DNA from: Klebsiella phage K64-1
Length of the DNA: 64,000 nucleotides
Direction: 5' to 3' (one strand)
Sequence record: AB897757.1
Part shown: in pieces, positions 12,687-60,830 of the stretch
Position numbering within the stretch: the first letter of the stretch is position 1
Layout: each line of letters opens with the position of its first letter
Program-made: the position numbers and the translations under genes
Notes under the pieces: model-generated
The model's database searches: none
Seen by the model: the letters and a program-made list of their open reading frames with translations, nothing else
Told to the model about the DNA's origin: nothing

Positions 12687-12718
12687 AAAAAGGGGAGCAT
12701 ATTAGCTCCCCTTTTTTA
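12687..12718. terminator. bidirectional rho-independent terminator between convergent genes
   Basis: aggggagc-atatt-agctcccct hairpin flanked by A-run and T-run. Confidence 0.65.
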
Positions 12719-13733
12719 TTATTGTCATAATTTCATTCAACGATGCAGGTGATACGGTTTCAGTCCACCCATCACCGAATAATTCTTTTGTTAAGTGTCT
12801 TGCTTTTATGGTTCTTTTTATTTCTTTTTCTATGTTAAATGCATCATTACAATTTTCATATACTTTGTGGTATACAACATTCAATTTGTACTTACATTTA
12901 TTTTTATATGAACCCATTCTGTGTTTGATATTCTTTGTTATACCGAATTTATAACCAACTATATTATTATAATCATCAGATACTTCTAAAATGTATATAC
13001 CTGAACTAAAATCAGAAGATTTATAACCATTTTTGTAACTAACAGAATTACACAAAGGACACCCTTTATCTCGCATAAAATTGTCATATGTCATAGACCA
13101 TGTATAATTGCATTTACAAGTTAAAATGACTTTACTAAAAACACCATTAAAGTTCTTTTCATCTATTAATTCAAATTTAATGCCAGTTTCTTTGCTTTTA
13201 ATTTTTAAATTCTCATTTAATTCATTTATACTGTATTTGTGAGTACCTGAACATTTCAAACAACCAATATTATTACTGAAAAATGAATCATAAGTGGTAG
13301 TATTCCATTCGTATGCTTCAGAATGTTTAGTATTGTCATTGCATTTTAGTTTTAAATATGTTTTTGTTTTATTATATTCATCAAACCCGAGGAATTCCAG
13401 TGTCCCACCTCGTTTAATGCATTCATTTTCCACATTTTGAATTAAAATTTCAGGTGTTAACTTATTCAATGAAGGCTTTCTGAACTTTTTTGATTCTATA
13501 TTTCTCAGATATCTATATAATTTGTTAATTCTGTAATTATTATAAGTTATATTATCATGTGTTATTGAAGTAAGTGTATTATTACCTAACCATTTTTCTT
13601 CAATAATGAATCCATTGAATTTTATATTAAATTTGGATAACCTTTTCGATAAATCGTTGAAATATTCCCATGGAGTTCTGGAATTATAGTTAACGTGAAC
13701 TAAAATAATATCATCTGGTAAAGATATTATCAT
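12702..13733 (-). CDS. putative homing-type endonuclease: two Cys-rich repeats plus C-terminal GIY-YIG/T5orf172-like domain
   Basis: GIYILEVSDDYNNIVGYKFGIT gives GIY...YIG spacing, then R and a C-terminal DGWTET. The N-terminus has two modules of the type L.C..........GC..C. Paralogous to 23731..24957 and 44202..45350. Confidence 0.6.
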   Translation of the reverse strand: MIISLPDDIILVHVNYNSRTPWEYFNDLSKRLSKFNIKFNGFIIEEKWLGNNTLTSITHDNITYNNYRINKLYRYLRNIESKKFRKPSLNKLTPEILIQNVENECIKRGGTLEFLGFDEYNKTKTYLKLKCNDNTKHSEAYEWNTTTYDSFFSNNIGCLKCSGTHKYSINELNENLKIKSKETGIKFELIDEKNFNGVFSKVILTCKCNYTWSMTYDNFMRDKGCPLCNSVSYKNGYKSSDFSSGIYILEVSDDYNNIVGYKFGITKNIKHRMGSYKNKCKYKLNVVYHKVYENCNDAFNIEKEIKRTIKARHLTKELFGDGWTETVSPASLNEIMTIIKKGS

Positions 13734-17694: not shown

Positions 17695-19428
17695 ATGTCA
17701 TGGAAACGTCACATGAGTACTGCTCGACCACGAGTATCAGTACAAAAAAATACAAGTTCAGATAAAGCGGCAGGAAGCAAGTCAAATTTTGCTTCTTATC
17801 TTCCACAAGTATATCAAGGATTACCAAATCGAACTGATCGATATCGACAATATGAAGAAATGGATCAAGATCCTGAAATCAGAACTGCATTGAATATCAT
17901 TGCTGATTTCTGTACTCAGAGTGATGTTGATTTTGGATTACCTTACAAAATTAAGTACAAAGATAATATCGGTGATACTGAAGTTACTACAATCGAAGAC
18001 CGCCTGGATGCATGGACTGACCAGAATGATTTTAAAATCAGAATGTATGAAATTGTACGCGGTTTGTTGAAATATGGTGATCAATTTTTTATTCGTGATC
18101 CAGAAACTTATGATTGGTACTGGGTTGATCCTAGTAATGTTGAACAGGTATTTGTAAACCAGGCAACAGGTAAAAACCCTGTGGTTTATTATATCAGGGA
18201 TGTATCTTTGAATCTAAAAGATAAAGTACTTAGTAATGTACATATTGGATTTAACCAAAGTGCTTATACTGGTGCTGCACCTAATTTACTTGGTTCTAAT
18301 TCATCCGCTGCATCAGTTGGTGGATTGGCTGGGATTACAAGTTCTGGCTCTTCTGGTTCATCAGATCCATTTAATACAAGTGGTAGAATGGATGTATTAC
18401 CAGTTGCTGCTGAACACGTCATTCATTTTAGTCTAAACACAGGACAAGATGGTGTGTGGCCATTTGGTACCAGTATTCTGGAAAATGTTTTTAAAACATA
18501 TAAGCAAAAATCACTTCTTGAAGACAGCATTATTATATATCGAGTACAACGTGCACCTGAACGAAGGGTATTCCGTATTGATGTAGGTGATATGCAAACT
18601 CATCAGGCAATGGCTTATGTTGAACGTTTTAAAAATGAAATTCATCAACGAAGAATTCCTTCAAATAAAGGAGGAAGTACTTCAATGATGGATGCAGCAT
18701 ATAACCCATTAAGTATTTTAGAAGATTACTACTTCCCACAAACTGCTGATGGTCGTGGTTCATCCGTTGATACATTACCAGGTGGCGACAATCTTGGGCA
18801 GATTGATGATTTGAGATACTTTAATAATAAACTTATTAGGGGATTACAAATTCCTTCATCATATCTACCACAAGGTCCAGATGATGGAGGTGTTTCATTA
18901 TTTGGTGATGGTGCAACTCAGGCAATGGCAAGTGAAATTCGTTTTAATAATGAATGTATGCGTTATCAACGTCTGGTAGCAAAAGTATTCGATGCTGAAT
19001 TTAAACGATTTATGCTACATAACGGTTATAACATAAGTACTGCATCATTTGAGGTAGTATTGAATGCACCAATTAACCTTGCAACTTATCGTAGAGCAGA
19101 ACTGGATGCTAAATTGATTACTACCTACTTACCTCTTAATGATTTACCATATATGGCAAAACAAACCATTCTACAAAAAATGGGCTTTGAACAGAAAGAT
19201 ATTGTACAGAATGAAGAATTACTTCGTCAGGAACTTGGTATGGATATTAACACCGCTAATAGTACTGAACAAGCATCACTTCAATCAGTCGGTATTGAAG
19301 CACCAAATAATTCTGAACAAGATCTCGGTGTAGATGAAAATGGTGAGCTAGAAAGTGCAGATAAAGAATATCAGGATTCACAAGAAACATCAAATTTTAA
19401 CCCAAATGGTTTAGGTGATTCTTTTTAA
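17695..19428 (+). CDS. 20: portal vertex protein gp20
   Basis: LEDSIIIYRVQRAPERRVF and TLPGGDNLGQIDDLRYF match T4 gp20 LEDAVVIYRITRAPDRRVW and TLPGADNTGNMEDIRWF. Confidence 0.9.
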   Translation: MSWKRHMSTARPRVSVQKNTSSDKAAGSKSNFASYLPQVYQGLPNRTDRYRQYEEMDQDPEIRTALNIIADFCTQSDVDFGLPYKIKYKDNIGDTEVTTIEDRLDAWTDQNDFKIRMYEIVRGLLKYGDQFFIRDPETYDWYWVDPSNVEQVFVNQATGKNPVVYYIRDVSLNLKDKVLSNVHIGFNQSAYTGAAPNLLGSNSSAASVGGLAGITSSGSSGSSDPFNTSGRMDVLPVAAEHVIHFSLNTGQDGVWPFGTSILENVFKTYKQKSLLEDSIIIYRVQRAPERRVFRIDVGDMQTHQAMAYVERFKNEIHQRRIPSNKGGSTSMMDAAYNPLSILEDYYFPQTADGRGSSVDTLPGGDNLGQIDDLRYFNNKLIRGLQIPSSYLPQGPDDGGVSLFGDGATQAMASEIRFNNECMRYQRLVAKVFDAEFKRFMLHNGYNISTASFEVVLNAPINLATYRRAELDAKLITTYLPLNDLPYMAKQTILQKMGFEQKDIVQNEELLRQELGMDINTANSTEQASLQSVGIEAPNNSEQDLGVDENGELESADKEYQDSQETSNFNPNGLGDSF

Positions 19429-20586: not shown

Positions 20587-21207
20587 ATGAGTATGCTACG
20601 TGAATGGTCTTCATTCGAGGATTCTAAAGTACTAACTGAATACAGAGATAATGGTGTAGGTGGTAAAGATTGTTATCTGCGTGGAATTGCTATTCAGGCA
20701 GATAAAAGAAATCACAACGAACGTGTATATCCACTGAACGAAATTACTAAAGCAGTCCAAAACATGCAACAGCGTATTGCCAGTACTGGTGGTATTGCTG
20801 TTGAATGTGATCACCCAGAATCATTGAACATTAATATGGATCGTGTTGCTGGTATGATTACTAAAGTGTGGATGGAAGGTTCTAATGGTATGGCTGAAAT
20901 TAAACTATTCAATACTGATCATGGAAAAAATATTCGTGCGATGATTGAAGGTGGTCTTCGTCCTGGTGTTAGTTCCCGTGGCTCTGGTAATGTTGATTAT
21001 AATGGTGTTGTTAGTGATTTCGAAATTGTTACTATTGATATTGTAGCTCAACCTAGTGCTCCTGATGCTTATCCAATGGCAGTATTTGAGTCTCTTAATA
21101 ATAAGTATGGATATGGACAAACGCAGAAACCTGTTAATGAATCAAAGTCAGTTTCTAAAAATATGGATTCTGAAATCTATGATTTTTTCAAGAAATTAAA
21201 AGGTTAA
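20587..21207 (+). CDS. 21: prohead core protease gp21
   Basis: NERVYP, ECDHPES, GVSSRGSGN and QPSAPDAY match T4 gp21 NKRLYP, ELNHPP, GVSSRGLGS and GPSAPDAW. Confidence 0.85.
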   Translation: MSMLREWSSFEDSKVLTEYRDNGVGGKDCYLRGIAIQADKRNHNERVYPLNEITKAVQNMQQRIASTGGIAVECDHPESLNINMDRVAGMITKVWMEGSNGMAEIKLFNTDHGKNIRAMIEGGLRPGVSSRGSGNVDYNGVVSDFEIVTIDIVAQPSAPDAYPMAVFESLNNKYGYGQTQKPVNESKSVSKNMDSEIYDFFKKLKG

Positions 21208-21251: not shown

Positions 21252-22364
21252 ATGACTAAATTGGAAAAGCTTCTAAAAGAATCATCCCTTTCTGATGAAG
21301 CAAAACAACTCATCCAGGAAGCATGGAATGAAGAAAAAAATAATCTAGCCGCAGAAATGCGTCAGGAAATGAAAGAACGTTATAAACAAGATCTTGCTGA
21401 ACTAACTGAAGGTCTTGATCAGATGATGAGTACTGTTATCGCTGAAGAAATGAATGCGGTATATGATGAAAAACGCAAACTCGTTGAAGATCGCGTAACT
21501 CTTCGTAAAACTCTGAGTAATTTCTCTGGTTTTGCTAATTCAGTACTAGCTGAAGAAGTGAAACAAATGCGTAATGAACGTAAACTTATTAAAGAAAGTA
21601 TGAATAAATTCGTCAATTTCTCTAATAACATTCTTGCAGAAGAACTTAAAGAATTCCACGTTGAAAAACGTCAACTGGTAGAAAGTCGTGTTAAATTGCT
21701 TGCTGAAGGTTCTAAAAAAATCAATGAAGCTCGTGATAATTTTATTAAACGTACTTCCGAAAGTGCTGCAAAATATATTACTGAAACTACACAGAAACAT
21801 CTTAGTGCACTAAAACAGGATATCGCTGAAGCTAAGCAAAATACTTTCGGGCGTAAACTATATGAAGCATTTTCTAATGAATTTTATTCACAACAATTCA
21901 ATGAAAATGTTCTACTACGTTCACTGAATGAATCTCTGAAAACTAAAGAAGATGAAATTGTTCAAGTTAAACAAGCTCTTTCAGAAAGTACCAAAGCAGT
22001 TAAAGAAGTTCAACATAAACTTCGTGTTATGGAAGATACTCAAGCACGAAATGCAATTATCTCTGAACTAACTAAACCGCTTAATGTACAACAAAAGCAA
22101 ATTATGGAATCACTTCTGGCTACTTCTCCAACTGAAAAGCTAAAAGACGATTTCAATAAGTACCACAAGTCAGTACTTAATGGTACTAAAGTAACAGAAT
22201 CTGTAAAAGACGTTCAACCTAAAAAGAAAACTCTTTCAGAAGGTTCAGTTGTTACCGGCAATCGCCAACAAGCAAAAGTTATCGTTGAAAATTCAGAAAT
22301 TGATGAAGACGATATGAAGTACCTCGAAGAACTATCTATTCTAAGTGGTATTATTAAAAAGTAA
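21252..22364 (+). CDS. 22: prohead core scaffold protein gp22
   Basis: 370-aa coiled-coil, Lys/Glu-rich protein located between gp21 and gp23. Confidence 0.7.
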   Translation: MTKLEKLLKESSLSDEAKQLIQEAWNEEKNNLAAEMRQEMKERYKQDLAELTEGLDQMMSTVIAEEMNAVYDEKRKLVEDRVTLRKTLSNFSGFANSVLAEEVKQMRNERKLIKESMNKFVNFSNNILAEELKEFHVEKRQLVESRVKLLAEGSKKINEARDNFIKRTSESAAKYITETTQKHLSALKQDIAEAKQNTFGRKLYEAFSNEFYSQQFNENVLLRSLNESLKTKEDEIVQVKQALSESTKAVKEVQHKLRVMEDTQARNAIISELTKPLNVQQKQIMESLLATSPTEKLKDDFNKYHKSVLNGTKVTESVKDVQPKKKTLSEGSVVTGNRQQAKVIVENSEIDEDDMKYLEELSILSGIIKK

Positions 22365-22459
22365 TATTTTTAACGCATATTTTAACCACCTTTTTCAGTA
22401 CTGATAAATAACTTTATATTGAAAAAGATTTTAATAAAATTATCTAAAGGAGACTTTAA

Positions 22460-23615
22460 ATGTCTAATAAACTACTAACTGAATCTCAATGGGCCGCGAC
22501 CAAAGAACGTATTACCGAAGGTCTAAAAGGCAGTCGTAAACGTGTGATGGATATTACTATGGATAACTATCGTCGTGAGCGTGCATTATTTGAATCTGCT
22601 ACTGCTGGTGCTACCACTGCTGGTAACATTGCTTCTGTTAACAAAGTAATTCTACCAATCATGCGTCGTGTATATTGGTGTACAACCAATGACTGGTCCA
22701 TACTGCCAGATTCATACTCTACGTGTTCAATATGCAACCAATGCTCCAGGTGTTGCTGCTGGTGAAGAAGCTCTATCTCCATACAAAATCGCCAAATCTT
22801 ATACTGGTGAACTGAATTCTGATAACACTAGCCCACAAGCCGCTCCTACTTCTCAACTAGAAGGTACTATGGGTCGTCAGGTAAATATCAACATTCTACG
22901 TGAAATCGTTGAAGCCAAATCCCGTCGTCTCTCTGCTCGTTGGACTGTTGAATCTATGCAAGATGCACAATCTCAACACGGTGTTGATATTGAAGCTGAA
23001 CTGGTTAACGCAATTGCTCAAGAAATTACTGTAGAAATCGACCAAGAACTACTTTCTCGTCTACGTGCACTACCTGGTGCTCCAGCAGTGACCTATGACC
23101 AAACCAAAGTAACTGGTGTTGCTACTTTTATTGCTGATGAACACGCTTCTCTGGCAATTCTAATCAACCGTCAGGCAAACGAAATTGCTCGTCGTACCAA
23201 ACGTGGTGCAGCTAACTGGGCTGTTGTTTCTCCAGAAGCACTATCTATTATTCAGTCTGCAACTACTTCTAGTTTTGCACGCAGTACTGAAGGTACTTTC
23301 GAAGCACCAACCAACGTTAAATTTGCTGGTACTCTAAATGGTACTATGCGTATCTACGTTGATACCTATGCTTCTGATCTGGAAGATATCCTGATTGGTT
23401 ATAAAGGTGCTAACGAAACTGACGCTGGTGCATTCTATTGCCCATACGTTCCACTGATGGCTACCGGTACTGTAATGGATCCAAATACCTCCGAGCTAGT
23501 GACTTCCTTCCTGACTCGTTACGGTTATCTGGAATTCGTGGATTCATCCTCTTCCTTTGCAAACTCAGCCGATTACTTCAGCAAAATTGCTGTTCGTAAC
23601 GTTACTTTCATGTAA
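22460..23615 (+). CDS. 23: major capsid protein gp23, reading frame split at about 22665-22670 (two overlapping ORFs 22460..22765 and 22668..23615)
   Basis: ORF1 ...TTAGNIASVNKVILPIMRRVY matches T4 gp23 ...TSGAVTQIGPAVMGMVRRA. ORF2 YIGVQPMTGPYCQIHTLRVQY...REIVEAKSRRLSA matches DICGVQPMNSPTGQVFALRAVY...KQVIEAKSRQLKA. The two parts are in different frames with no slippery motif. Confidence 0.85.
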
Positions 23616-23659
23616 TAAAATAAAAAAACTAAAAATAATATAAAATATTGTATTTTTTA

Positions 23660-23688
23660 TGGGACTTCACTTTGAAGTCCCATTTTTT
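23660..23688 (+). terminator. rho-independent terminator after capsid gene
   Basis: tgggacttca-ctt-tgaagtccca hairpin followed by a T6 run. Confidence 0.75.
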
Positions 23689-23730
23689 ATAGCATTAATT
23701 TGTTGAACAAAGTAACAAGGATGTTTTATA

Positions 23731-24957
23731 ATGATGACATTTGATGAAGTGCATGAACAATTTATTAAAATTGGTAATAAGAGAGAACCATCTTATTTTA
23801 AAAAAATAATTTTAAAAGAAATTGAAATGTATAATTTAAATTATGAATTTATTGGGTTTAATATTAATTCTATTATTGAATTTAAAGGAGCAAGAACGAA
23901 GTTAGTACTAAAATGTCCAGTACATGGTATTTTTTCTGATTGTACTTTCAATAATTTTACAAAATCTAATGCACAGGGTCGCCGCTGTCCTGAATGTGCT
24001 AAAGAATCTAAAGCTTTGAAACAACGTTGTTGTACTGAAGAATTTATTGAAAAATGTAAAAGAGTACATAATGATTTTTATGATTACAGTAAGACTATAT
24101 ACGGAAAAAATGCTCATGAACACGTTGTTGTTACCTGTAAATTACCAAATCATGGAGATTTCAAAATACGTCCTTCATGTCATTATAATAAAGCACAAGG
24201 TTGTCCTATATGTGCAAAAGAAAAAAGAAAAATTGATGAACAGGATATAATAACCAGATTAAATGAAATACATAATAATCACTTTGGATTTGATAAATTC
24301 GTATATAATGGATCGGAAAATAAATCTATAGTAACTTGTTTAGTGCATAATAAAAATTATGAAGTTAAAGTTGGGAGTTTACTTTATGATCATGGCTGTG
24401 CATTGTGTTCAACAAGAGCAAAACACACAAAAGAATCATTCATATCGATGGCAGTACTGAAACATGGTAATGTATATGATTACAGTAAAGTACAATATGT
24501 AGATTTATTCACTAAAGTTGAAGTTGTTTGTAATAAAGATAATCATGGTTCATTCTTTATTACTCCAACAAGTCATATACATGGTTTAAAACCAAATGCA
24601 TGTCCAAAATGTTCAAAATATGGATTTCAACCAAATAAACCTGGATTCTTTTATATTCAAAAAATAACTAATTCATGTAAAGAAGTTATATCTTATAAGT
24701 ACGGTATTACATGTGATTTAATAAGACGATTGAATGAGCATAACAGAAATTCTATATATGTGCATGAATATATTTTTCATGAATACTTTGATAATGGGTA
24801 TGAAGCAATTGAACTTGAAAAGCTTATAAAAAAATCAATTCCTTCTTGGTATTTGAATTCTAATGAATTTGGTGATGGTTTCACTGAAACATACGATCCT
24901 AAATACCACAAAGATGTTATTAATATAATCAAAAAACAACAAAGGAGAAATCCATGA
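23731..24957 (+). CDS. putative homing-type endonuclease: four Cys-rich repeats plus C-terminal GIY-YIG/T5orf172-like domain (segD position)
   Basis: Four modules of about 65 aa (LKCPVHG...GRRCPEC, VTCKLPNHG...GCPIC, VTCLVHNK...GCALC, VVCNKDNHG...ACPKC). C-terminus GFFYIQKI...YKYGIT...R...DGFTET. Sits between gp23 and downstream genes, where T4 carries segD. Confidence 0.6.
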   Translation: MMTFDEVHEQFIKIGNKREPSYFKKIILKEIEMYNLNYEFIGFNINSIIEFKGARTKLVLKCPVHGIFSDCTFNNFTKSNAQGRRCPECAKESKALKQRCCTEEFIEKCKRVHNDFYDYSKTIYGKNAHEHVVVTCKLPNHGDFKIRPSCHYNKAQGCPICAKEKRKIDEQDIITRLNEIHNNHFGFDKFVYNGSENKSIVTCLVHNKNYEVKVGSLLYDHGCALCSTRAKHTKESFISMAVLKHGNVYDYSKVQYVDLFTKVEVVCNKDNHGSFFITPTSHIHGLKPNACPKCSKYGFQPNKPGFFYIQKITNSCKEVISYKYGITCDLIRRLNEHNRNSIYVHEYIFHEYFDNGYEAIELEKLIKKSIPSWYLNSNEFGDGFTETYDPKYHKDVINIIKKQQRRNP

Positions 24958-31423: not shown

Positions 31424-31786
31424 ATGTTTGAAGATGAAATTCAAAGGAATAATGAATTGTATGAAGAGTATAAAAAAATGAAATCTGAAACAAAACAAAA
31501 GAACATTAACATAAGAATTACAGAATGTCTAATGAGTAATACTATCGATTCAGTACTGGCATATGATGCAATAGATGAGGACATTCTAACCAAGAATGGT
31601 TTCGTTAGAACAGGAACTATTTCTTTGTGTAATGAGATTGTTGGTGTTTATAGAAACCCAGTAAATAAAAAAACTTTTACTATAGAAATTGGTGATGATG
31701 TAGAACATCCATCAAATTTCATTGAAAAGGTTAACAATGAAATAATTAAAAAATCAGATAAACACTATCTGTACAACTGGAAATAA
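31424..31786 (+). CDS. hypothetical protein
   Basis: 120-aa ORF. Confidence 0.45.
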   Translation: MFEDEIQRNNELYEEYKKMKSETKQKNINIRITECLMSNTIDSVLAYDAIDEDILTKNGFVRTGTISLCNEIVGVYRNPVNKKTFTIEIGDDVEHPSNFIEKVNNEIIKKSDKHYLYNWK

Positions 31787-36981: not shown

Positions 36982-40318
<3,337 letters not shown>

Positions 40319-40343
40319 ATATCTAAATAAAATACTAAAATAA

Positions 40344-41636
<1,293 letters not shown>

Positions 41637-44139: not shown

Positions 44140-44168
44140 GTTGATTTAGGTCAACCATTTTGTTATAC
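44140..44168 (+). terminator. terminator-like hairpin
   Basis: atggttga-tttagg-tcaaccat followed by tttgtt. Confidence 0.4.
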
Positions 44169-44201
44169 TTTCAGTATAACATTTTAATTGAGAATTTACA
44201 G

Positions 44202-45350
44202 ATGGCTAAAAAAAGAACTCAAGAAGAAGCAAATAAATTAGTTTTTGATGCCTGTGAACGCAAAAACTACACATTTAAATCTTTTGTATATAATAACAGA
44301 AATACTAGAATTGATGTACATTGTAATGTATGTGGGTATGAATGGGATATATTGTTTGAAAATTTAACAAGAAATCCTTGTGGTTGTCCAGATTGTGCTG
44401 GATTGGTTAAACGAACACAAGAACAAGCAGAAAATGAAGTACGTCAAAAATGTAATGAAAGAAATTATAAATTTGGAAAGTTTGTTTATGTAAATAATCA
44501 AACAAAAATACCGTTAATTTGCCATTGTGGATACGAATGGGTTTCATGTTCTTTTTCTAAATTTGTACATGGTAACAGGGGTTGTCCACGTTGCTCTAAA
44601 AAAATACAATTAACTCAAGAAGAAGCAACCAAAAAAGTGGATGCAAAATGTAAAGAGAATAATTACTTATATAAGGAATTCTCGTATATTGGAGTTGATG
44701 ATACGAGACTTTTTCTTATTTGTCATTGTGGATATGATTGGAATTGTTCATTTGATAAATTTGTTAATTCAGGAACAGGCTGTCCTAAATGTGGTGGTAG
44801 ATTGCAATTAACTCAAGAAGAAGCCGAAGAACGAGTATTATCTAAATGCAAAGAGCATAATTATACATATAAACCATTTTGTTATCTAACCAATGAAACA
44901 AAAATATCTTTGATTTGTCATTGTGGATATGAATGGGATTGTAGGTATTCATTGTTTGTAATGCCAAACGGAACTGGTTGTCCAAAATGTTCTCATAATG
45001 ATGGACAGTTATATTCATATATACATTCAATAACAGATGATGACGGTAATTTAATTTCTGTAAAATATGGGATAGAAACCACAATCAATAGTAGGAATAA
45101 AAGTCAAAATAAATTATCTAACTATAATATTTCAGTACTTAATACTTACAAATATATTACTGTTGAACAGTGTAAAAATGCAGAAAAAGAATGTATTAAA
45201 TTATTCCAAAAAGAAAACAAAGAACTTTTTGGAAGAAAGGGTTATATAACTAAAGAAGAAATGAGGGATGGTTGGACGGAAACCACATCTGTTTCTAATA
45301 TTGAAAAAATCATTTCTATCTATGAAAAATGGGGTGGAATTAAACAATAA
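44202..45350 (+). CDS. putative homing-type endonuclease: four Cys-rich repeats plus C-terminal GIY-YIG/T5orf172-like domain
   Basis: Track ORF is 44160..45350. The start MAKKRT at 44202 avoids overlap with the upstream hairpin. Four LTQEEA...KC.E.NY.YK.F.Y...CHCGYEW.C.F..FV...GCP.C modules. C-terminus GQLYSYIH...VKYGIE...DGWTET. Confidence 0.6.
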   Translation: MAKKRTQEEANKLVFDACERKNYTFKSFVYNNRNTRIDVHCNVCGYEWDILFENLTRNPCGCPDCAGLVKRTQEQAENEVRQKCNERNYKFGKFVYVNNQTKIPLICHCGYEWVSCSFSKFVHGNRGCPRCSKKIQLTQEEATKKVDAKCKENNYLYKEFSYIGVDDTRLFLICHCGYDWNCSFDKFVNSGTGCPKCGGRLQLTQEEAEERVLSKCKEHNYTYKPFCYLTNETKISLICHCGYEWDCRYSLFVMPNGTGCPKCSHNDGQLYSYIHSITDDDGNLISVKYGIETTINSRNKSQNKLSNYNISVLNTYKYITVEQCKNAEKECIKLFQKENKELFGRKGYITKEEMRDGWTETTSVSNIEKIISIYEKWGGIKQ

Positions 45351-55825: not shown

Positions 55826-56095
55826 ATGGACGCAAAAAACCAAAATCTATTAGATAGTATTTTTGAACACACATCCGAAAAAAGATCAATACAGCATTTT
55901 AGTAATAGAGCAGATCACGCGATTAACTCTGTTATTAATTTACTTGAATATATAGAAACTGAATTTGATGCAGACGACGCTGAAGATTTAAAAAAGCGTT
56001 TATTTCTTAGTATAAAGAATAGAGACTATAAAAAGTTTCAAAAAGGATTGGAGAATATTGCACTCGATGAATCCAGAAAGAATAAGGATAATTGA
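55826..56095 (+). CDS. hypothetical protein
   Basis: 89-aa ORF. Confidence 0.4.
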   Translation: MDAKNQNLLDSIFEHTSEKRSIQHFSNRADHAINSVINLLEYIETEFDADDAEDLKKRLFLSIKNRDYKKFQKGLENIALDESRKNKDN

Positions 56096-56680
56096 TGATT
56101 TTTGACAAGTCCAAATTTGAAAAATTTACTAAACCACGTAAACTGAAATATATTCAGGAAAATGATTTTTTGGGATTTAATACAAAAAATGCAGTGATGG
56201 TATTATATTGTATAGAAAATGATTTAACAGATGTTGTATATGCACCTTGTGGATCTGAATGTAAAAATAACATCAACTAAACCATCCAAGTACTGTAATA
56301 GTTATAAAAACAGAAAGGAAGAAACATGTCCTCTGTGTCATAATTATTATAAAAATACAATGCAAGAGAAGTACAAAGAAAGTTGTACCAAAAAAATATG
56401 GTGTAGAAAATCCAATGAAAAGTACTGAAATTAGAGAAAACTATAAACAGAATTTCATTGAAAAAACAGGATATACAAATCCATTGTGCACAGGTACCGA
56501 TTCAAGAACAAAAAGAGATCAAACTTGTATTGTATTATTTGGTTCGGTATCTTCACAAAAACGACCCATCACTTTTGCCTAATTTAACAGAAGATGATAT
56601 AACTATCGGTTTGTATAAGTTCAATAAAATATACACTACTGGGAATTTGAAATATGAAAAAAACTATAAATGAAAATGCC
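56092..56680 (+). pseudogene. decayed copy of the N-terminal DNA-binding region of the 59097..60830 endonuclease
   Basis: Fragments in three frames (KNAVMVLY...YAPCGSECK, TCPLCHNYYKNTMQEKYKESCTKK, KKYGVENPMKSTEIRENYKQNFIEKTGYTNPLCTG) align in order with KNAVLRVY...YAVCGRKCK, YCEKCNKHWREKK and RKYGTNYNK...KTGYSCPLSNP of the intact gene. Confidence 0.6.
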
Positions 56681-59096: not shown

Positions 59097-60830
59097 ATGA
59101 AAAAATATCTGAAAAATTTAGATACAGAAACAGAAAATCTATTTAATGAAATTCGTTCATTACTAAGTAACAAAAATAGTAAATCATGGCATACCTCAAT
59201 AAATGCTTCTGGAAGGGAGCATTTAAAAAACGCGGTACTCAGAGTCTATCCAAGTAGTGATTTTTTATTATCAGAAGCATTAAAACTGATTATCAATCAA
59301 GAAGAACCACCGTATGCAGTATGTGGTAGAAAATGTAAGTATTTTAATGGTCAGTATGATAGATATTGTTCATTGGGTGTCAAACCCAATAAAAACACTT
59401 ATTGTGAGAAGTGCAATAAACACTGGCGAGAAAAGAAAAACAAATCCACAAAAGAAAACTGTCTAAATCAGTACAATGTTGAACACCCTTTTCAGCGAAA
59501 TGATGTGAAAACAAAAGTACATGAAACTAAAATACGAAAATACGGTACTAATTATAATAAAATAATTTCAAACAAATCATTCAGTACTTATTATAATAAA
59601 ACTGGATATTCATGTCCATTGAGTAATCCAGATATACAACAAAAAATTAAAGAAACTAATATTAAAAATTATGGATATGAAAATCCCGGTTCATCTCCAT
59701 TAATTGTACAAAAAAGAAAAAATACCCAGAAGAAATTATATGGTCATGAACATTCTATGCAGAATGGTGATATAAAACTAAAGGTATTGATTAAATCTGC
59801 CACACAGAGAATGGATAGTATAAATTCAAAACTTGAATTTACTAATTTTATTCCTTTGTTTGATATTAGTGATTTAATTGGTTTGGATACATATAACAAA
59901 ATGCCATACTGGTGTAATACACATGGTTTATTTTATTCATGTAGTAATTATAAAATTATATGTAATGAATGCACTCCCGTTCATATAAGCACACAACACA
60001 AAGAGATATTAAATTTTATAGAAAATCTTGGTATTGAATGTGTAACGAATACACGCTCTGTTTTAAAAAGTACTATGGAATTGGATATTTTTATACCTGA
60101 CTTGAATGTTGCAATAGAAATTAATGGTATGTACTGGCATAGTACTGAATACAAAGAACGACTGTATCATCAAAACAAAATGTTGGAATGTAAAGAACAT
60201 GGCATTCACTTAATACAGATATGGGAAGATGAATGGAATACCAAACAAGATTTGGTTAAATTTCGTTTGATGAATGTATTAAAATGCTCCAGTACTATAT
60301 ATGCAAGAAAATGTAAAATAAAAGAAATCAATAAAAAAGAATGTGATAATTTTATTAATACATACCATATCCAAGGTTCTAGTTCATCATCTATTAGAAT
60401 TGGTTTATATTACGAAAATGAATTATATGCAGTTATGACATTTGGAAAATCCAGATTTGATAAAACTGTTCAGTATGAATTGATACGATATTGTTCAAAA
60501 AGTACAGTCGTTGGCGGTGCATCTAAATTATTAAAGTACTTTGAGAAGAAATACAAACCAGTGTCGTTGATTTCTTATGCAGATGCGTGTTGGAGTACTG
60601 GTGATTTATATATTAAACTTGGTTTTACATATAATGGATTAACTGAACCTGGTTATTTTTATTACAAATCAAGTACTGGTAGAATTTCAAGGCATCAATG
60701 TCAAAAGAAAAAACTAGTCAATCAGGGATATGATGAAAATTTATCAGAATATCAAATATGTACCACTGTACTTAAATATAACAAAATATTTGATTGTGGT
60801 AATTTTAAATTCACTAAATATTACATATAA
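59097..60830 (+). CDS. three-part putative homing endonuclease: zinc-ribbon plus K-YG-x-NP repeats, Vsr/DUF559-like PD-(D/E)xK domain, C-terminal GNAT-like domain
   Basis: CGRKC...CEKC. Repeats RKYGTNYNK / NYGYENPGSSPLIV / KLYGHEHSMQ. ELDIFIPDLNVAIEINGMYWHS fits the D...E.NG..WH pattern of Vsr/DUF559 nucleases. VVGGASKLL...SYAD...LGF looks like an acetyl-CoA-type fold. Confidence 0.55.
   Translation: MKKYLKNLDTETENLFNEIRSLLSNKNSKSWHTSINASGREHLKNAVLRVYPSSDFLLSEALKLIINQEEPPYAVCGRKCKYFNGQYDRYCSLGVKPNKNTYCEKCNKHWREKKNKSTKENCLNQYNVEHPFQRNDVKTKVHETKIRKYGTNYNKIISNKSFSTYYNKTGYSCPLSNPDIQQKIKETNIKNYGYENPGSSPLIVQKRKNTQKKLYGHEHSMQNGDIKLKVLIKSATQRMDSINSKLEFTNFIPLFDISDLIGLDTYNKMPYWCNTHGLFYSCSNYKIICNECTPVHISTQHKEILNFIENLGIECVTNTRSVLKSTMELDIFIPDLNVAIEINGMYWHSTEYKERLYHQNKMLECKEHGIHLIQIWEDEWNTKQDLVKFRLMNVLKCSSTIYARKCKIKEINKKECDNFINTYHIQGSSSSSIRIGLYYENELYAVMTFGKSRFDKTVQYELIRYCSKSTVVGGASKLLKYFEKKYKPVSLISYADACWSTGDLYIKLGFTYNGLTEPGYFYYKSSTGRISRHQCQKKKLVNQGYDENLSEYQICTTVLKYNKIFDCGNFKFTKYYI

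Follow-up and report, generated by a model that had tools for sequence, protein, structure and literature searches.

The major capsid protein of the sister phage RaK2, gp094, is the most abundant protein of the virion, and runs slightly under its predicted mass of ∼43 kDa, which fits a T4-like N-terminal processing (PMC3622015). The RaK2 gene (AFA44367.1) and its orthologues in phages Muenster, RCIP0023 and KP13-7 are found in the same head module (portal, protease, scaffold, capsid) as the gene analysed here, and each of these relatives encodes the protein in one 393-aa ORF. The protein belongs to the same family as T4 gp23 (PF07068; PDB 5VF3, 6UZC, 7VS5), with which it has the motif RRxxPxxIAxxIxGVQPM in common. 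T4 gp23 is longer (521 versus 393 aa) because the T4 region between the two aligned blocks is absent from the shorter protein. Examples of one protein being read from two frames, or across a gap, are the +1 frameshifting of prfB and the bypassing of T4 gene 60. Programmed frameshifting has as its hallmarks a shift-prone codon next to a stop or rare codon, an upstream Shine-Dalgarno-like stimulator and a stem-loop, while those of bypassing are matched take-off and landing codons flanking a non-coding gap, a stop after the take-off codon and a stem-loop. Broken frames are also produced by errors in deposited phage genomes, which are typically 1-nt homopolymer errors.

The genome of φK64-1 (NC_027399/AB897757) is the reference genome of this phage and an exemplar of the genus Alcyoneusvirus. 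The whole stretch of it analysed here (64 kb; hereafter, the window) is collinear with positions 64,030–128,049 of RaK2, with an identity of 99.05%. Its capsid gene lies in a head module, after the portal, Peptidase_S77 protease and scaffold genes, which is a T4-type context (Table 1). The initial annotation described this gene as encoding a gp23-type major capsid protein and as being split between two ORFs in different frames. Both statements proved correct. ORF2, which lies in the +1 frame relative to ORF1, matched the Pfam Gp23 family (PF07068) with 269.8 bits (cut-off 24.4), and the PDB chains of T4 gp23 matched the capsid protein at an E value of about 1e-40. ORF1 alone had no Pfam match; the restored 393-aa protein (see below) reached 303.2 bits. 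In ORF1, the 30 C-terminal residues are read out of frame.

Table 1. Features of the capsid gene of φK64-1 and its surroundings (positions are those of the window)
Feature	Position	Strand	Comment
Portal gene	17695-19428		Head module
Prohead protease, gp21-type, Peptidase_S77	20587..21207	+	Head module
Scaffolding protein gene	21252..22364	+	Head module, upstream of the capsid gene
Shine-Dalgarno AAGGAG	22447..22452	+	Precedes the true start of the capsid gene; Muenster annotates an RBS at the equivalent site
ORF1	22460..22765	+	101 aa; strong AAGGAG upstream
gp23 codons 1-71 (MSNKLL...PIMRRV)	22460..22672	+	Start-codon frame (frame 2); 100% identity to the intact 393-aa relative (tblastn)
ORF2	22668..23615	+	315 aa counted from the first GTG; +1 frame relative to ORF1
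Junction lacking 26 nt	22672..22673	+	ATGCCAACCGTTATCGCTAACGAAAT, i.e. the codons for MPTVIANE plus 2 nt of that for I
Out-of-frame tail of ORF1 (YWCTTNDWSILPDS...CCCW, then TGA)	22673..22765	+	Wrong-frame read-through; without homology of its own
gp23 codons 81-393 and stop codon	22674..23615	+	+1 frame (frame 3); aa 81-393 at 22674-23612, 100% identity (tblastn)
RefSeq-annotated major capsid protein YP_010843009.1	22689..23615	+	308 aa; starts at an internal ATG (M86 in the intact protein)
Intrinsic terminator after the capsid gene	23659..23690	+	Also annotated at the corresponding position in Muenster

Alignment of the gene with those of RaK2, RCIP0023 and Muenster showed that exactly 26 nt (ATGCCAACCGTTATCGCTAACGAAAT) are missing between the GTA ending at 22672 and the TATTGG starting at 22673. 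The resulting junction reads CGTCGTGTA|TATTGGTGTA; at the same point the relatives have the codons CGT CGT GTA ATG CCA ACC GTT ATC GCT AAC GAA ATT ATT GGT GTA CAA, that is, RRVMPTVIANEIIGVQ. Neither microhomology nor a direct repeat was found at the breakpoints. The gap was broken into many small gaps by megablast, and appeared as a single gap in the MAFFT alignment. The initial annotation proposed that a +1/−2 shift at the junction would join the two ORFs, and that homology to gp23 was continuous across them. The position of the junction was right, but the lesion is of 26 nt rather than of 1–2 nt, and nine conserved residues (MPTVIANEI) are missing from the supposedly continuous homology. Given the length of the gap and the loss of nine residues, a +1/−2 shift would mend the frame, but not the protein. 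In the window, no single ORF contains the motif RR-x11-GVQPM: what is left of it, RRV|YIGVQPM, straddles two frames and is nine residues shorter. A further remark in the initial annotation, namely the absence of a homopolymer or slippery heptamer at the junction, was verified by inspection of CGTCGTGTA|TATTGG.

A simple frameshift of 1–2 nt was ruled out by the single 26-nt gap in the alignment. The 26-mer does not appear to have been moved elsewhere, either by mis-assembly or by transposition, as no match to it was found in the window at up to three mismatches. A search of the 64-kb window with the intact orthologue as query (tblastn) found residues 72–80 of the intact capsid protein nowhere.

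In the alignment of the 64-kb window with RaK2, Muenster and OU509535, the 26-nt gap alone exceeded 2 nt among the indels private to the window. The other private indels are six in number, all of 1–2 nt and all in A/T runs, and are either intergenic or located in the decayed region at 56.1–56.7 kb. Since these six are all homopolymer events of 1–2 nt, the 26-nt gap differs from them in kind. Their small number and nature also ruled out a sequence of generally poor quality.

The capsid region of the window is 96.4–98.0% identical (gaps counted) to those of the Klebsiella jumbo phages of the genus Alcyoneusvirus (RaK2, RCIP0023, KP13-7, Muenster and others). When 14 independent assemblies (four GenBank phages plus ten ENA or Logan contigs) were read as DNA, the intact 45-mer was present in all 14 and the junction in none; in these 14 relatives the 26 nt lie within one ORF of 1182 nt. 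For three further GenBank phages, KP13-7, W12-3 and phiKp_21, match length likewise indicates a gene with 26 nt more. Comparison with orthologous gp23 genes, recommended in the initial annotation, thus showed the 26 nt to be present in every relative as part of one ORF; reads with 1–2 nt more or fewer, which that annotation named as the refuting result, would have been the wrong test for a gap of this size. Not one of about 17 close relatives, nor any of the best 120 homologues, has a split gp23. No copy of the junction string turned up in the collections searched (viral, metagenome and genome); an intact control string was likewise absent from the metagenomes, so the metagenome scan tells little.

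When the 26 nt are restored, the gene measures 1182 nt and differs by 1 nt from that of RCIP0023; across the RaK2, Muenster, RCIP0023 and KP13-7 orthologues the differences amount to 1–6 of the 1182 nt. It then encodes exactly the Muenster protein (QOE32504.1). As judged from its sequence, the remainder of the gene is free of any sign of decay. The initial annotation had also raised the possibility of a second, intact gp23 copy elsewhere in the genome. No second gp23 or gp24-like copy was detected in the 64-kb window (tblastn), and all sequenced relatives contain exactly one gp23 copy per genome.

The nine lost residues correspond to codons 72–80 and lie inside the RR-x11-GVQPM motif. Among the best 120 homologues (63–100% identity, mostly 387–395 aa), 116 contain RR and GVQPM separated by 11 residues that read VMPTVIANEIx or a near-identical variant. 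In a 26-sequence alignment, 14 of the 18 positions between R69 and M86 were invariant. The lost segment also aligns without gaps to residues I103–I111 of T4 gp23 (IPNLIAFDI) in the solved capsid structures. These alignments show its residues to be essentially invariant and part of the N-terminal motif that the family conserves best. In the K64-1 record, the motif shared with T4 gp23 is itself truncated. The preference of the T4 protease suggests that the prohead cleavage site is likely to be LFE|S, at residues 43–46; cleavage at this site would leave the lost segment inside the mature protein. A tryptic peptide of the intact gene product is VMPTVIANEIIGVQPMTGPYCQIHTLR. An AlphaFold2 model of the intact orthologue was of low confidence (mean pLDDT 47.6) and was discarded.

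The gap is also present in the public annotation. The protein database contains no 393-aa capsid entry for K64-1; the entry YP_010843009.1 (‘major capsid protein [Klebsiella phage K64-1]’) has 308 aa, begins with MTGPYCQ… and corresponds to positions 22689–23615 of the window. The coincidence indicates that the annotation pipeline was faced with the same broken gene and settled on an internal ATG, and it rules out a deletion confined to the copy of the sequence analysed here. The split between two frames and the 308-aa RefSeq protein are thus both consequences of the 26-nt gap. No mention of an anomaly in the capsid gene was found in the φK64-1 literature searched (the original genome paper aside).

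Phage φK64-1 has been repeatedly isolated from single plaques and is grown to doses of 1e9 PFU; it also replicates in colonised mice (PMC9441799). Such normal growth makes a mistake in the deposited sequence the most likely origin of the gap. Only one record has the lesion, in a gene that is otherwise undecayed, and the phage is viable (PMC9441799) although such a lesion would be lethal. On these grounds we consider it very probable that the gap is an error in the deposited sequence or assembly, and that the living phage keeps an intact gene. The 26 nt would have been lost while the record was being produced, and candidate routes include a gap overlooked where two contigs were joined, a mistake during hand-finishing and a deletion in a template that had been cloned or amplified. 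We infer that real φK64-1 DNA does not have the gap and would carry an intact gp23 of 1182 nt encoding 393 aa, as all its relatives do, with no recoding involved. The K64-1 gap resembles other frame-breaking errors in deposited phage genomes in being private to one record, in affecting an essential and otherwise perfectly conserved gene of a viable phage, and in having led to the choice of an internal ATG, but differs from the typical ones in being blunt and 26 nt long. To our knowledge, a clean loss of 26 nt in non-repetitive sequence is the typical error of no sequencing chemistry, which counts against an error in the record; so does the lack of a repeat or microhomology at the breakpoints, which leaves a collapse by the assembler without explanation there. 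A blunt, non-repetitive gap of 26 nt, being unlike ordinary sequencing errors, would be easier to understand as a true deletion in the sequenced DNA. The stock would then have been rich in capsid-defective genomes, for instance those of a recent lethal mutant kept up by co-infection with the wild type, and the consensus would have caught the defective allele. The pristine state of the rest of the gene fits a very recent event, and the homing-endonuclease-like ORF at 23731–24957, directly downstream, allows for a variant of this explanation in which the deletion arose by imprecise repair after a cut made by the product of this neighbouring gene. The same ORF, however, is found in every relative alongside an intact capsid gene, and a defective allele would need to exceed the wild type in the stock to reach the consensus. 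Moreover, a genome devoid of capsid protein cannot form plaques alone, while φK64-1 was repeatedly purified from single plaques (PMC9441799). A genuine deletion in the sequenced stock is therefore unlikely.

The initial annotation considered an indel, a defective genome and a recoding event. An error of sequencing or assembly is the option favoured by the present results, while recoding is strongly argued against. In the latter case, the deletion would be real and ribosomes would shift by +1, or hop, within positions 22650–22677, generating a 384-aa capsid protein lacking the nine residues. The phage is viable, and both frames are open at the junction (the +1 frame after the TAA at 22647–22649, and the 0 frame until 22763–22765), so a single +1 event within this nine-codon stretch would yield a fused product. 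Nevertheless, the junction contains neither a slippery or ‘hungry-codon’ site nor a 0-frame stop. The overlap, ATT CTA CCA ATC ATG CGT CGT GTA TAT TGG, has no slippery sequence of the repeat type, and the first 0-frame stop starts at 22763. The predicted RNA folding of positions 22640–22770 was no better than that of shuffled sequences (z = +0.5). The features of T4 gene 60-type bypassing were also missing, as there is no stop at the junction and no inserted gap (sequence has been removed, not added). The sequences flanking the junction are identical to those of relatives that need no shift, which indicates that no recoding signal has evolved. The likeness to prfB and T4 gene 60—the homology of an essential protein running over two frames in a T4-related phage—is thus superficial: their defining signals are all absent, and neither the close relatives (about 17) nor the best 120 homologues show the arrangement. 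In addition, the nine residues that would be missing from the recoded product do not vary between genera, and their conservation extends to T4. Recoding of a truly deleted gene is accordingly very improbable. Even less credible is that the capsid protein is made as two polypeptides, namely the 101-aa product of ORF1 and the 308- or 315-aa product of ORF2, which would co-assemble. Both ORFs do exist, but neither the ATG at 22689 nor the GTG at 22668 of ORF2 is preceded by a Shine-Dalgarno sequence or RBS, the final 30 residues of ORF1 are out of frame, the nine invariant residues would still be missing, and no relative has a split gene. As a whole, the idea that the deletion is present in infectious genomes, and that a very large capsid is built from a recoded or two-fragment gp23 that tolerates the loss of nine residues, deserves very little credence. 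If it were true, this would be the first recoded or split capsid gene of the gp23 type, and a segment conserved from T4 to jumbo phages would be dispensable.

The split of the capsid gene is no new biology. If it is an artefact, as an error in the record would imply, its practical value is that of a curation flag for the reference genome and for the RefSeq capsid protein, since the truncated YP_010843009.1 would distort capsid-protein phylogenies, proteome comparisons and training sets.

Several other features of the window were noted. The ORF at 23731–24957, which adjoins the capsid gene immediately downstream, is alike in its domains to those at 12702–13733 (− strand) and 44160–45350; the three contain CapR or treble-clef zinc-finger modules, and their RaK2 counterparts are all annotated as RB49ORF239c-like. 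The ORF at 12702–13733 also showed T5orf172 and MUG113 matches. These three ORFs may be free-standing homing-endonuclease-like genes. Another ORF, at 59097–60830, encodes a 577-aa ‘putative homing endonuclease’ in which DUF7487 was detected above the Pfam cut-off; REase_MTES_1575, Mom and PvuRts1I-like_N also matched this product, all of them below their cut-offs.

The large terminase (37649–40318; 889 aa) contains a LAGLIDADG_3 domain (aa 294–349) ahead of Terminase_6N (aa 434–642), which suggests an intein or a homing-endonuclease insert. Within this region, a patch (37922–38864) differs strongly from RaK2 and contains numerous small indels; it represents a K64-1-specific allele. A 4333-bp Logan contig from an independent public sequencing run (ERR7847573, contig 1198) was 100% identical to positions 37020–41352 of the window, thereby spanning the K64-1-specific terminase allele. 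The large terminase and the DNA polymerase had exact protein matches in Klebsiella phage K64-1 (BAQ02807.1 and BAQ02806.1, respectively).

The region at 56090–56680 consists of a string of short ORFs in three frames. Compared with ORF130 of RaK2, it contains three 1-nt insertions in A/T runs, at 56181, 56263 and 56390, the last two being private to the window. In Muenster, a full EDxHD homing-endonuclease gene lies near the equivalent site. The region looks like either the decayed remnant of a homing endonuclease or the result of homopolymer sequencing errors. Finally, a 1-nt difference from RaK2 was observed at about position 31667 (RaK2 95719, ORF101), where a small ORF has an A-run close to its end. 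The window, Muenster and OU509535 all have the same 1-nt state at this site, and the ORF of the latter two is longer (363 versus 273 nt); in this case, the homopolymer error may be in the RaK2 record itself.
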